This document shows, in pieces, positions 28,955-34,383 of a stretch of DNA of 64,000 nt. Positions within the stretch are counted from its first letter, which is position 1; every line of letters begins with the position of its first letter. The notes under the pieces are model-generated. The model ran no database searches, had not been told where the DNA came from, and saw only the letters and a list, made by a program, of their open reading frames with translations. The position numbers were made by a program, and so were the translations under genes. The stretch is from an uncultured Myxococcales bacterium (GTDB lineage: Bacteria; Myxococcota_A; Bradymonadia; UBA7976; UBA1532), in contig CAINDO010000440.1 of assembly GCA_903847385.1 (NCBI GenBank), positions 6,129-70,128 on the forward strand, written 5' to 3'.

Positions 28955-30001
28955 ATGTCTTCGATCGACCTGACGCGCCCCGAGCGCCAGATCCTCGCTG
29001 CGCTCGCGCAGCACGGCCCGCTGCCCTGGGGCCGCCTCCTGGACGCCCAGGACGGCTGCATCGCCGAGTTCGTCGGCGCGCTGCAGGCGCTGCGGGACAA
29101 GGACCGCGTGACGGTCGGCCAGGGTGTCGTGACGCTGCGCCCCCAGGCCGGCGCCCCCACGCCGCCGACCGCACTCGACTGTCTGTGCAAGGCCTGCGAC
29201 GGTCGCGGCTACACCGTCGCGAGCGAGGACCCGGCGCTGCAACGGCTCGAGGAGGCCCTGCGCGGCCGCCCCGCCCCGAACTTCGCCTTCGACCAGGGCG
29301 CCATCTCCGCCGCCGACTCGTTGCTGCGCGCCGCCTCGATGCAGGATCGCGGCGATCTCGCCGGTCAGTCCGTGCTCTTCGTGGGCGACTTCGATCTGAC
29401 CAGCGTGGCCCTCGTGCTCACTCGCCAGCCCGAGCGGGTGGTGGTGCTGGACATCGATCCGCGGGTCACGGACTTCGTGAACACACTCGGCGCGCGCTCC
29501 GGCCTGCCCCTGAGCGGCCGCGGGTTCGACGTGCGTCAAGCGTTGCCGGACGACCTGCGGCGCCAGTTCGACGCCTTCGTCTGCGACCCCGTGGAGACCG
29601 TGCCGGGCATTCGTCTGTATCTGTCGCGCGGGGCCGCCGCGCTGCGCGGTGAAGGCAGCGCCGTGTGGCTGGGCCTGACGACCATCGAGGCCTCGCGCCG
29701 CAAGTGGCACGCCGTGCAGTCGATGCTGATCGAGATGGGCTTCGCGATCACGGACGTCCGCCGCAAGTTCAGTGGTTACCCCGATCACGACGAGGTCCTC
29801 GACGAGCCGGGGCTGGCCTGGCCCGTGCTCTCGGAGCTCGGCCCCGAGGGCGCCGCCCACCGCTGGTACACCGCCGCGTGGCTCCGCGCCGAGGCCGTGC
29901 GCCTGCCCGAGCCCCTGGTGGACGGCGACGTCGAGATGGGCGAGGAGCTCTACATCGACGACGAGGCCTGGGCCACCCCGCGGGCGGTGGAGAAGGCGTG
30001 A
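28955..30001 (+). CDS. DUF43/BpsA-like aminopropyltransferase (branched-chain polyamine synthase family): N-terminal winged helix plus Rossmann-like domain
   Basis: PERQILAALAQHGPLPWGRLL (wHTH). SVLFVGDFDLTSVALVL and VVVLDIDPRV are Rossmann-type motifs matching DUF43 as I recall it. AGAGGAG ribosome-binding site. The gene sits next to the AdoMetDC and SpeE genes. Confidence 0.5.
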   Translation: MSSIDLTRPERQILAALAQHGPLPWGRLLDAQDGCIAEFVGALQALRDKDRVTVGQGVVTLRPQAGAPTPPTALDCLCKACDGRGYTVASEDPALQRLEEALRGRPAPNFAFDQGAISAADSLLRAASMQDRGDLAGQSVLFVGDFDLTSVALVLTRQPERVVVLDIDPRVTDFVNTLGARSGLPLSGRGFDVRQALPDDLRRQFDAFVCDPVETVPGIRLYLSRGAAALRGEGSAVWLGLTTIEASRRKWHAVQSMLIEMGFAITDVRRKFSGYPDHDEVLDEPGLAWPVLSELGPEGAAHRWYTAAWLRAEAVRLPEPLVDGDVEMGEELYIDDEAWATPRAVEKA

Positions 30002-31284
30002 CGCAGCGGCTGGCGCGACTGCTCGGGCTGCGACCCGAAGAGTTCGGGCGCGCGTCCGCGCTCTTCGCGCTGTCGTTCGTGCTGGGTCTGTCGCTCGTGT
30101 CGCTCGAGTTGGCGTCGTCGACGGGCCTGCTGGTCACGCTGGAGGGCGCGCAGCTCGCCTGGTCGCACGTCGCGGTCGCCGCCGCCCTGCCCCTCGCCGG
30201 CCTGGCCCTGGCGTGGCTTCGGCCCCGGGTGTCCGTGGCGAGCTACGTGACGCTGCCGCTCGCCGCGTTCTCCCTCGTGGTGTTCGCCGCGGGCTGGTCC
30301 GCCGGCGACGGGACGCCCGGCGCCCTCACCGTGCTCGGTCTGTGGGCGGGCGCGAAGGCGCTCTCGGCGACCGCCATCGTCGGGTTCTGGACGCTGGCCG
30401 CGCGCACCTTCGACGTCGAACAGAGCCGCCGTGTGTACGGTCTGATCGGCGCGGGCGAGCTGATCGCCGGCGTCCTGGGCGGCGTCGGCGCGGGCGCGCT
30501 GCAGGCCGCGCTGCCGCGCACGGACCTCATCGCACTGACGGTCGCCGGCGTGCTCGGGGGTGTGTTGCTGACGCTGCCCCTGGCCCGGAATCTGGTGCCC
30601 GAAGCCCCGGCTGCGCCCGCGGACGCGGGGGCCAGCGCGCTGGTGCGCGCCCATCAACGGCGCTGCATCGCCTACTTCGGCGCCAGCAACTTCACCTACG
30701 ACATCCTCGAGTTCCTGGTGCTGGTGTCCATTCAGCGCGCCTACCCGGGGCAGCCGGAGGCCATGGCCGGTCTCCTCGGCGGTCTGTTCGCCGCGCGGCT
30801 CACGCTGAGCGCGCTGATCCGTGTGTTCGTGACCGGCCACGTGCTGGGACGCCGCGGCCTCGGCCCGGCGCTCGCCGGTCCGCCCGCCACCGTGAGCGGT
30901 CTGGCCCTGGCCGCCGTGGCGCTGCACCCCATGGCCGTGTCGCTGCTGGTGGCCACCGTGGCGCTGCAGATGGCCGAGGGGATCGTGCGCAACGGCTTCG
31001 GCAAGCCGGCCTTCATGGCGGCGCAGCGTCCCCTGCCCACGCCGACCCGCGACCAGACGCTCCTGCTCATCGAGACGGCCGTGGAGCCCGCGACCACAGG
31101 GCTCGCCGGACTGGCGCTGCTGCTCTTGCCCGTGCAGGCCCTCGCCGGCACGGCGCTGCTGCTGCTGCCCGTGCCGGGCGCCGCCGTGTGGCTGTTCTTC
31201 GCCCGGAACCTGAATCGATCGTACCGCGCGCTCGCCCCGAGCGCCGCGGCCATCCCGACCACACCGACCCCCACCCCGACCTGA
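29998..31284 (+). CDS. Polytopic membrane transporter (MFS-like), putative polyamine exporter
   Basis: About 11-12 hydrophobic helices. The GTG start overlaps the upstream TGA as GTGA. Confidence 0.55.
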   Translation: MTQRLARLLGLRPEEFGRASALFALSFVLGLSLVSLELASSTGLLVTLEGAQLAWSHVAVAAALPLAGLALAWLRPRVSVASYVTLPLAAFSLVVFAAGWSAGDGTPGALTVLGLWAGAKALSATAIVGFWTLAARTFDVEQSRRVYGLIGAGELIAGVLGGVGAGALQAALPRTDLIALTVAGVLGGVLLTLPLARNLVPEAPAAPADAGASALVRAHQRRCIAYFGASNFTYDILEFLVLVSIQRAYPGQPEAMAGLLGGLFAARLTLSALIRVFVTGHVLGRRGLGPALAGPPATVSGLALAAVALHPMAVSLLVATVALQMAEGIVRNGFGKPAFMAAQRPLPTPTRDQTLLLIETAVEPATTGLAGLALLLLPVQALAGTALLLLPVPGAAVWLFFARNLNRSYRALAPSAAAIPTTPTPTPT

Positions 31285-33508: not shown

Positions 33509-34383
33509 GCCCTGTCCCTGCCCAGTGGTGGCACGAGAGCACCTATGGTTCGGGCATCACGCAGGCGCTCGACCTGACGACGCGGCACGAGGAGCGGTCG
33601 GCGTTCCAGGAGATCGGCGTGTACGATCACCCGGTGTACGGCAGCGTGCTGACACTCGATGGCACCGTGCAGATCTCGCAGGCGGACGACTTCATCTACC
33701 ACGAGATGGCCGCCCACGTGCCGCTGCTCGGGCGGGCCTGGCAGGACGCGCGGGTGCTGATCATCGGCGGCGGCGACGGCGGCATGCTGCGCGAGGTGCT
33801 GCGTCACGACTTCGTGCGCGAGGTCGTGATGGTGGAGATCGACCGGCGGGTCATCGACCTCTCGAACGAACACATCGGCCTGCAGGGCGATTACGCCGAT
33901 CCGCGCGTGACCCTCATCATCGACGACGCCGTGCGCTACGTGGCCGACACCGCCCGGAGCGACAAACGCTTCGACGTGGTGCTGATCGACGCCACGGACT
34001 CCACCGGGCCGACCAAGGTGCTGCTCACGCGGCCGTTCTATCACGACCTGCACACGCTGCTGTCGCCCGGGGGGGCGGTCATCGACTCCGACATCCTGCT
34101 CGTCGGCAACGACGGCGGGCGTCTGTCGCGCGACCCCTGCGACTTCAGCATCTACGACATCATCCGGTCGGGTCTGTTCGCGCGCGTCGAGGGTTACGGC
34201 GCGCGGGTGCCCCTGTATCCGGGCGGGCCCTTCGCGTTCTTTCTGTACAGCAAGGACGGCCACAGCTTTCGCACGCCCGTGCGGTCGTGGCACGGCCGCT
34301 ACTACGACCCCGAGCTGCACGCCGCGGCATTCGCGCTGCCGACCTGGTGGCGCAACCTGATCGCCGTGGGGCCGAACGCGTGA
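33505..34383 (+). CDS. speE: Spermidine synthase / polyamine aminopropyltransferase
   Basis: FQEIGVYDHPVYGSVLTLDGTVQISQADDFIYHEMAAHVPLL..VLIIGGGDGGMLREVLRH..VVMVEIDRRVI is a canonical SpeE signature. ATGA overlap with the upstream gene. Confidence 0.8.
   Translation: MSPVPAQWWHESTYGSGITQALDLTTRHEERSAFQEIGVYDHPVYGSVLTLDGTVQISQADDFIYHEMAAHVPLLGRAWQDARVLIIGGGDGGMLREVLRHDFVREVVMVEIDRRVIDLSNEHIGLQGDYADPRVTLIIDDAVRYVADTARSDKRFDVVLIDATDSTGPTKVLLTRPFYHDLHTLLSPGGAVIDSDILLVGNDGGRLSRDPCDFSIYDIIRSGLFARVEGYGARVPLYPGGPFAFFLYSKDGHSFRTPVRSWHGRYYDPELHAAAFALPTWWRNLIAVGPNA

Follow-up and report, generated by a model that had tools for sequence, protein, structure and literature searches.

Branched-chain polyamine synthase (BpsA) is known from Thermococcus kodakarensis and Thermus thermophilus, and according to a 2026 review, bpsA orthologs occur only in thermophiles (PMC12979288). 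The same source describes the GDDD motif of the enzyme as indispensable—Asp159 and Asp160 position the aminopropyl group of decarboxylated S-adenosylmethionine (dcSAM), and Asp159 forms a salt bridge with its amine—and BpsA reportedly passes through an intermediate in which its own acidic residues are aminopropylated (PMC12979288). Here, we describe a BpsA-family gene in a 64,000-nucleotide stretch of DNA from an uncultured Myxococcales bacterium (assembly GCA_903847385.1, contig CAINDO010000440.1, positions 6,129 to 70,128; hereafter, the window), where it lies in a tightly packed block of eight same-strand genes (~26937-35306, +). This block also encodes S-adenosylmethionine decarboxylase (AdoMetDC), SpeE-type aminopropyltransferases, and two lysyl-hydroxylase-like 2-oxoglutarate (2OG)/Fe(II) oxygenases, a combination that may specify the synthesis of a hydroxylated polyamine. 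Intergenic gaps across 26941-35306 are, in order, 35, 26, -4, 8, 38, -4, and -1 nt, and G+C content at third codon positions (GC3) is 0.90-0.95 within the operon, matching neighboring genes (the window as a whole has a G+C content of ~72%). An earlier, sequence-only reading had pointed to three aminopropyltransferase-like genes in one operon; all three are present on the + strand, none is a chance match, and together they contain four domains, drawn from two families that look unrelated (BpsA_C and SpeE). That reading had passed over the AdoMetDC-oxygenase fusion, the second oxygenase, the membrane protein, and the GNAT-like genes.

We assigned the product of 28955-30001 (+; 348 aa) to the BpsA family as an aminopropyltransferase-like protein of what we term the GDFD subfamily, based on its match to PF01861 BpsA_C (E 2.8e-66; 223.7 bits, cutoff 27) and to solved structures from T. 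kodakarensis (5xnc, E 9e-47) and T. thermophilus (6j28, E 9e-44; 6j27, E 2e-43). These are the profile search and alignment that the sequence-only reading had proposed as checks, and both bear out the family that it had named from two motifs, GDFDL (residues 144-148) and VLDIDPRV (residues 164-171), which are indeed present; the N-terminal winged helix-turn-helix that it also described was matched by no profile and is plausible by analogy only. The inference from GDFDL itself held only in part, as BpsA has GDDD and the phenylalanine takes the place of a residue reported as essential. Transferring the T. kodakarensis numbering by gapless alignment to 5xnc, we found that G157-D158-D159-D160 corresponds to G144-D145-F146-D147 in the window protein, such that Asp159 is replaced by Phe146. 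D225, E259, Y290, and Y316 are retained as D211, E245, Y275, and Y305, and the acidic tail ELYDDEE as E331-L-Y-I-D335-D336-E337. Homologs show little or no variation at D145, D147 (D160 in T. kodakarensis), D211, E245, Y275, and Y305 or in the acidic tail. This conservation of the other catalytic residues speaks for an enzyme that is active but has a changed donor pocket, and against a dead one, and it is tempting to speculate that Phe146 might exchange the salt bridge for a cation-pi contact.

The substitution is shared by a defined group of sequences. In a neighbor-joining tree of 154 family members, 37 sequences with GDFDL formed one exclusive clade and 10 with GDFDC another, both nested within a 56-tip clade, and the phenylalanine is invariant in all of them. 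Close bacterial homologs of the window protein all display GDFDL together with a second signature, PDHD, after Tyr275, and GDFDC characterizes a eukaryote-like homolog group; GDDDL was found in every thermophile-named locus (Thermodesulfobacterium, Caldimicrobium, Thermodesulfatator, and Hydrothermarchaeum). Among the best 150 representatives of a library of 1.84 billion proteins, ~131 have GDDD and 7 have GDFD, and a scan of GTDB genomes recovered two of the GDFD type, a number that is no measure of rarity given that the scan was pattern-based and non-exhaustive. Carriers of GDFD include metagenome-assembled genomes (MAGs) labeled Myxococcales, Holophagales, and Rhodanobacteraceae as well as the amoeba Balamuthia mandrillaris, none of them thermophile-named. 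By motif and tree, GDFD is a coherent and distinct BpsA subfamily, and the window protein is a variant, not a typical BpsA.

Directly upstream, the 27924-28928 (+) product is a fusion of class 1b AdoMetDC (residues 1-113; PF02675 E 1.5e-38; TIGR03330 135.8 bits, cutoff 75.65) to a 2OG/Fe(II) oxygenase (residues ~126-334; PF25238). Residues 1-113 align without gaps to the Thermotoga maritima enzyme (1TLU), retaining the E62-S63-H64 processing site, H68, and C83, and the domain thus looks functional and would supply dcSAM. Neofunctionalized AdoMetDC homologs that act as ornithine/arginine decarboxylases exist (PMC10407285); such a role seems unlikely for the domain described here, because it is the sole SpeD homolog in most clusters with multiple aminopropyltransferases and because of the gapless T. 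maritima alignment. The position of AdoMetDC immediately before the BpsA-like gene supports dcSAM-dependent chemistry, and in two homologs (P0020 and P0024) AdoMetDC is fused to a GDFDL-type BpsA outright. Both observations run counter to the outcome that the sequence-only reading had named as fatal to its assignment, namely that the BpsA-like protein is a generic S-adenosylmethionine (SAM) methyltransferase.

A second, stand-alone oxygenase of 208 aa is encoded at 31293-31919 (+). It and the fused copy match PF25238, an N-terminal OGFOD2-like family, at 38.3 and 35.1 bits, respectively (cutoff 31). A profile built from 26 homologs found the mimivirus lysyl hydroxylase L230 (6ax6, E 4e-32) and human LH3/PLOD3 (E 1.5e-28), as compared to only ~0.006 for prolyl hydroxylases; the fused oxygenase part on its own matched 6ax6 (E 2e-10) and LH3 (E 5e-9). 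Structure prediction gave the same placement and a double-stranded beta-helix fold, with an AlphaFold2 (AF2) model of the stand-alone protein (pLDDT 95) attaining Foldseek TM scores of 0.78-0.86 to LH3/L230 versus ~0.5 to prolyl hydroxylases. H137, D139, H184/H186, and R196—the HxD...H triad and the 2OG-binding arginine—are invariant in the family, fused copy included, and judged by profile, model, and residues both proteins are clearly lysyl-hydroxylase-like with an intact metal and 2OG site. The multi-domain architecture of PLOD proteins is absent, as the oxygenase occurs as a single domain or fused to AdoMetDC, and classifying it as a collagen lysyl hydroxylase would be inappropriate. Two further observations concern this family—on metagenome contig Ga0315336_1026387, six oxygenase paralogs, distributed over both strands, form a tandem array of 3.6 kb (L054, 1-3652), a marked local expansion, and in a JGI metagenome protein of 340 aa (P0093), a fragment of O-methyltransferase (PF01596) is fused to an OGFOD2-like oxygenase, which hints that the hydroxyl may be O-methylated in some lineages.

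We then compared loci anchored on BpsA, comprising the window, L003 (a Myxococcales MAG), L005/L009 (a Holophagales MAG), L007, and L008 (a MAG labeled Rhodanobacteraceae), a set that tests the oxygenase link without bias. One or two copies of the oxygenase lie beside the BpsA-like gene in all five bacterial GDFD loci, where SpeE paralogs, AdoMetDC, and a counterpart of the membrane protein are likewise encoded, whereas the oxygenase was found in none of 11 thermophile GDDD loci (L010-L020), a split expected by chance with a probability of ~2e-4 (Fisher). A metagenome scan seeded with the oxygenase recovered 45 loci, ~24 of which show AdoMetDC, SpeE, or GDFDL-type BpsA in the available flank; some of the remainder encode an APH kinase or a transporter homolog, and most others are shorter than 3 kb. 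On four intron-split contigs with 47% GC, the oxygenase adjoins a BpsA-like gene, and the pair therefore occurs in eukaryotes too.

Gene fusions tie the same components together. AdoMetDC is joined to the oxygenase in the window and in eight other cases (P0064, P0099, P0101, L005, L034, L047, L050, and L073), and GDFDL-type BpsA is joined to an APH kinase in P0202 and P0213. The smallest set was found in L073, with an AdoMetDC-oxygenase, a SpeE gene of class C (defined below), and a GNAT-like gene. In NCBIfam, the APH proteins are most similar to O-phosphotransferases acting on macrolides, aminoglycosides, capreomycin, and viomycin; we considered whether they could instead be methylthioribose kinases recycling methylthioadenosine, but set this aside because the best matches were to the antibiotic phosphotransferases and there was no match to the MtnK model. 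In the B. mandrillaris assembly GCA_031835245.2 (L074, 3425-9033; L075, 3955-9394), two BpsA_C genes, one with GDFDC, flank an APH kinase. This locus neighbors genes for MCM6, frataxin, and a PPR-DYW protein and thus belongs to a true eukaryotic genome, which suggests that part of the module was transferred between bacteria and amoebae. Several additional genes recur around the module (L005, 13847-15924; L021, 1666-3015; L025, 6870-10004), including an alkaline phosphatase by the APH kinase, cNMP-binding proteins, a very large TLC/MFS-HEAT-cNMP membrane protein, a CN_hydrolase of the kind found in the N-carbamoylputrescine amidase family, an FAD amine oxidase flanked by SpeE genes, and DUF5916.

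Downstream in the operon, SpeE paralogs fall into three classes (A, B, and C) that we separated by alignment across loci. The gene at 31958-33508 (+) encodes a double SpeE of 516 aa with two Spermine_synth stretches, as the sequence-only reading had recognized, along with the degeneration of the second. Its N-terminal half (31958-32722) is of class C, 63% identical to a stand-alone SpeE of 243 aa in L073, with its catalytic residues intact (GGGDG(Y), VDID, IGDG, and LDLTD). Its C-terminal half (32723-33508) is of class B, degenerate by motif loss and probably non-catalytic; it keeps GGGDG, lacks the GDG segment, and reads N-A-R-A-D at the catalytic D-x-x-D. Since the double open reading frame recurs in independent assemblies (516, 516, and 513 aa within its cluster), we do not consider it an assembly artifact. 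Class B has lost D-x-x-D in all eight loci where it was compared (and GGGDG as well in some), but it also lies directly upstream of class A in all eight, overlapping or fused. This pattern suggests that class B is a conserved non-catalytic partner, putatively a regulatory or scaffold subunit, and not a third specificity.

The class A gene (33505-34383, +; 292 aa) is the canonical SpeE-type aminopropyltransferase that the sequence-only reading took it to be. Its product matches PF01564 (E 7.6e-35; 120.6 bits, cutoff 22.9) and, over its full length, E. coli SpeE (3o4f, E 1.3e-46), its best match in the PDB, and GGGDGG, VEID, and IDATDSTGP are intact, with the IDATDSTxP signature conserved in eight loci. 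Scores against the NCBIfam equivalogs NF002010 (224, cutoff 260) and TIGR00417 (207, cutoff 249.55) fell below threshold; having passed the Pfam cutoff and missed these, class A is assigned to the SpeE family and not to one exact activity. The full set of expected SpeE residues (GGGDG, an acidic residue after strand 2, GDG, and D-x-x-D) is present in both class A and class C. Sequential aminopropyl additions with distinct regiospecificity, proposed earlier on the basis of paralog redundancy, are a plausible outcome of this arrangement, and the lysyl-hydroxylase-like partners point to a chemically modified product, beyond mere extra aminopropyl units.

Three further genes complete the block. 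At 29998-31284 (+), a polytopic membrane protein and putative transporter displays ~10-12 hydrophobic segments in a hydropathy scan and matches nothing in Pfam or NCBIfam; it is related to the N-terminal MFS/TLC-like part of the larger transporter-HEAT-cNMP proteins of sister clusters. Homologs were found in L003 (44%), L005 (30%), L008, L026, L028, L041, L043, L044, and L069, and the homolog in L025 matches the NTP/NDP exchange transporter model TIGR00769 at E 6.6e-6. The last gene (34383-35306, +), overlapping the stop codon of SpeE by 1 nt, encodes a GNAT-fold protein of 307 aa and candidate N-acetyltransferase. Its Pfam GNAT score is below cutoff (17.6 bits against 20.7), and its AF2 model (pLDDT 94.9) is best matched by Foldseek to AAC(3)-I aminoglycoside N-acetyltransferases, among other GNAT proteins (E 2e-5; TM to target 0.5-0.6), with the match confined to the N-terminal half. 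In L003, L026, L073, and GCA_041447055.1, a homolog is found at the equivalent position.

The first gene of the block (26937-27888, +) is weakly GNAT-like and contains an apparent frameshift, with its first 66 codons (MRPVLQVFTAATLPERP...LLEVEG) in one frame and the rest in another following a run of six G at 27134-27139; this break is either a sequencing/assembly error or a true frameshift. The repaired product has sub-cutoff matches to PF22998 (GNAT_LYC1-like, E 2.6e-4) and PF00583 (Acetyltransf_1, E 0.023). The gene is 35 nt from the next and has a homolog inside a related cluster (L044, 39% identity), and we count it as part of the module only tentatively. In public annotations, its start is placed in the wrong frame, yielding an Arg/Ser-rich N-terminus.

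Taken together, we interpret the operon as encoding a pathway driven by dcSAM, the product of which would be a hydroxylated and possibly branched or long-chain polyamine, N-acetylated here and O-phosphorylated in sister clusters; we put the probability of this reading at roughly 0.5. Under this scheme, the AdoMetDC domain would supply dcSAM, with which the SpeE enzymes would extend a di- or triamine stepwise by aminopropyl groups, class A probably being partnered by class B as a subunit. Further aminopropyls would be added by the GDFD protein, on internal or bulky amines by analogy with BpsA, and the oxygenases would hydroxylate the polyamine at a carbon beta (next-but-one) to an amino group, the position at which lysyl hydroxylase modifies lysine and that is also hydroxylated in hypusine and 2-hydroxyputrescine. 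The GNAT-fold protein or proteins may then N-acetylate the product, and the membrane protein may transport it or one of its precursors. The new hydroxyl would be phosphorylated in sister clusters by an APH-type kinase, sometimes fused to BpsA—because plain polyamines have none, such a group would account for the fusion of an O-phosphotransferase to a BpsA-like enzyme.

Several observations weigh against the hydroxylated-polyamine pathway. The closest characterized relatives of the oxygenase act on peptidyl-lysine and not on free amines, and Phe146 replaces the aspartate reported as essential for dcSAM positioning (PMC12979288), so the BpsA-like protein may rely on a different donor or mechanism. 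Neither the APH kinase nor the amine oxidase of sister clusters is present in the window, there is no oxygenase within 8 kb of the Balamuthia BpsA-like genes, and the GNAT-like family is also found away from polyamine genes (L071). The 45 metagenome loci were selected through the oxygenase and are thus biased as a test of its link to BpsA, and the bacterial carriers of the module are all uncultured. Finally, a close relative, GCA_041447055.1 (with a GNAT-like protein 90% identical to that of the window), encodes ricin-lectin, PLD, AdoMetDC-oxygenase (322 aa), and GNAT-like genes in that order, the last two directly adjacent, and is without BpsA, the membrane protein, the second oxygenase, and the SpeE block. 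The missing segment equals window positions 28955-34383, an indel of 5.4 kb between near relatives, and the block is therefore dispensable or mobile. Recombination between the two oxygenase copies might explain the indel.

Among other explanations, the operon could serve ordinary polyamine synthesis with redundant paralogs, making known linear or branched products (spermidine, spermine/thermospermine, or N4-aminopropylated forms) alongside oxygenases that are unrelated or regulatory (oxygen or 2OG sensing). AdoMetDC, SpeE, and BpsA_C are indeed the enzymes of the branched-polyamine route of Thermococcus and Thermus (PMC12979288), and there are documented bacteria whose multiple SpeE paralogs differ in specificity (PMC11107197), but this explanation leaves unaccounted for the covalent fusion of oxygenase to AdoMetDC in many lineages, the presence of the oxygenase in all five bacterial GDFD loci and its absence from all 11 GDDD thermophile loci, the hydroxyl-requiring kinase fused to BpsA-like proteins, and the consistent replacement of Asp159, and we regard it as unlikely. 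That same replacement, extending through a whole clade and co-varying with the clade-specific PDHD after Tyr275, may mean that the GDFD protein is no aminopropyltransferase at all, but a SAM-dependent methyl- or 3-amino-3-carboxypropyl-transferase or a non-catalytic subunit. We give this little credence, as the near-invariance of the remaining catalytic residues and acidic tail is unexpected for a dead enzyme, and AdoMetDC is present in every cluster and fused to some homologs.

A different possibility is that the targets are proteins, with the oxygenases hydroxylating lysines of proteins or peptides, the aminopropyltransferases alkylating lysines or carboxylates, and the kinase phosphorylating hydroxylysine, in the manner of diatom silaffins or hypusine. 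Silaffins combine polyamine-modified lysines with phosphorylated hydroxylysine, and the hydroxylysine kinase of animals belongs to the APH family. The nearest solved relatives of the oxygenase, moreover, are peptidyl-lysine 5-hydroxylases, and BpsA's reported modification of its own acidic residues is likewise in line with protein targets (PMC12979288). The clusters contain no conserved candidate substrate protein, however, and fusion to AdoMetDC, an enzyme of small molecules, along with a transporter and a GNAT protein whose fold matches are aminoglycoside N-acetyltransferases, better fits a small-molecule pathway, such that we consider protein targets very unlikely. Distinctly unlikely, though a special case of the hydroxylated-polyamine pathway and not strictly opposed to it, is a bioactive toxic polycation—a secondary metabolite for which acetyltransferases, kinase, and phosphatase would provide self-protection or activation as in producers of aminoglycosides, viomycin, and capreomycin. 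The resemblance of APH to antibiotic phosphotransferases, the alkaline phosphatase gene adjoining the APH gene in L005, the best structural matches of the GNAT model, and the patchy distribution of the block, present or absent between close relatives, are all in keeping with such a compound, whereas the operon lacks other typical secondary-metabolite genes and the module is present in eukaryotes too.

A bolder extension of the hydroxylated-polyamine pathway is that OGFOD2-like oxygenases are C-hydroxylases of polyamines or aminopropyl groups that, with GDFD BpsA and the APH kinase of sister clusters, define an undescribed class of hydroxylated, at times also O-phosphorylated or N-acetylated, branched or long-chain polyamines in non-thermophilic bacteria of several phyla and in amoebae; this we advance tentatively, and consider it more doubtful than not. 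If true, branched-polyamine-type chemistry would not be confined to thermophiles, the orphan OGFOD2-like family (PF25238) would gain its first functional lead, and an unexplored family of hydroxylated polyamines with a new type of polyamine hydroxylase would come into view. The GDFD subfamily breaks with both statements of the review, on thermophile-only bpsA and on an indispensable GDDD (PMC12979288), and would be a natural test of the role of Asp159 in BpsA catalysis. Likewise, a conserved dead SpeE beside an active copy would represent a bacterial pseudo-enzyme partner in polyamine synthesis. We found no account of the module in the literature on OGFOD2, lysyl hydroxylase, hydroxylated polyamines, or DUF43/PF01861, and no link to polyamines, in the searchable literature, for lysyl-hydroxylase-like 2OG oxygenases or aminoglycoside-kinase-type phosphotransferases. 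Although its enzyme families are well known, the module is novel in its BpsA subfamily, in which a residue reported as essential is substituted, and in the unreported partnership of that subfamily with a lysyl-hydroxylase-like oxygenase and APH kinase.

Other features of the window were also considered. PLD-like and ricin-lectin genes at 23172-26828 are on the same strand with short gaps, but we rejected them as part of the module because they have no homolog in ~60 related loci and are syntenic in one close relative only. A scan for promoters and terminators across 22000-38000 yielded nothing exceeding shuffled expectation. Thermophily estimates from IVYWREL content came out at -30 C over all window proteins and at +60 C over the six cluster enzymes, values that we discarded as meaningless for a small and compositionally odd sample. 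Three large secreted Cys-rich proteins with MopE-type metal-binding motifs are encoded at 39379-42120, 52785-56876, and 61445-63553 (all -), with one of 1363 aa matching at E 2.6e-47; MopE-type gene content is typical of Myxococcota and thus fits the Myxococcales labels of the nearest MAGs. At 36301-37290 (-), low-complexity (GSGN)n repeats follow a lipoprotein-like signal (MKASKKTTLRWGAVALLSLFAAPAC), and an overlapping frame at 36572-37213 (+) contains (PL)n repeats; GC3 is high in both frames, and either strand is possibly coding.

How, then, does the module compare with described systems? Its closest counterpart is BpsA itself (EC 2.5.1.128; 5xnc, 6j27, 6j28), which shares with the window protein the PF01861 domain over an alignment of ~265 residues, a nearby AdoMetDC, the residues D158, D160, D225, E259, Y290, and Y316, and the acidic tail. 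The window protein differs in having Phe for Asp159, an extra PDHD, and a linked oxygenase that thermophile loci lack; for an N4-bis(aminopropyl)spermidine-type activity from spermidine and dcSAM, the adjacency and fusions of AdoMetDC provide indirect support. Classes A and C share fold, catalytic residues, and coupling to AdoMetDC with bacterial SpeE-type spermine/thermospermine synthases (PMC11107197). An AdoMetDC-aminopropyltransferase fusion is known from Pelagibacter (PMC11107197), but unlike in these systems, the fusion partner of AdoMetDC is here an oxygenase (in homologs, a BpsA-like protein) instead of SpeE, one paralog class is degenerate yet conserved, and class A scores under the NCBIfam equivalog cutoffs.

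Catalytically dead paralogs kept alongside an active copy do have precedents among polyamine enzymes, including the AdoMetDC prozyme of trypanosomatids and the paralog pair of deoxyhypusine synthase. Class B resembles these in having lost catalytic residues while staying beside the active copy, to which it is translationally coupled or fused, although it belongs to the SpeE family, occurs in bacteria, and is a putative partner. With LH3/PLOD3, L230, and OGFOD2-like PF25238 proteins, the window oxygenase shares profile, fold, and the HxD...H triad with its arginine; as opposed to LH3/PLOD3, it is a single domain of 208 aa with no glycosyltransferase domains, situated in polyamine clusters and with a copy fused to AdoMetDC, and its putative substrate is a free polyamine or aminopropyl group and not collagen. 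Routes to hydroxylated polyamines elsewhere include putrescine 2-hydroxylase and deoxyhypusine hydroxylase. The same proposed outcome, a C-hydroxyl beta to an amine, is also reached by pavettamine pavABC in relatives of Burkholderia (bioRxiv 10.64898/2026.06.12.731819); we rejected this pathway as a precedent, as it employs a Rieske/carboxynorspermidine-decarboxylase protein and shares no enzymes with the module. Whereas the known routes depend on Rieske-type or HEAT-repeat di-iron enzymes and carboxynorspermidine-type chemistry, hydroxylation in the module would instead combine a lysyl-hydroxylase-like 2OG/Fe(II) oxygenase with dcSAM-dependent transferases.

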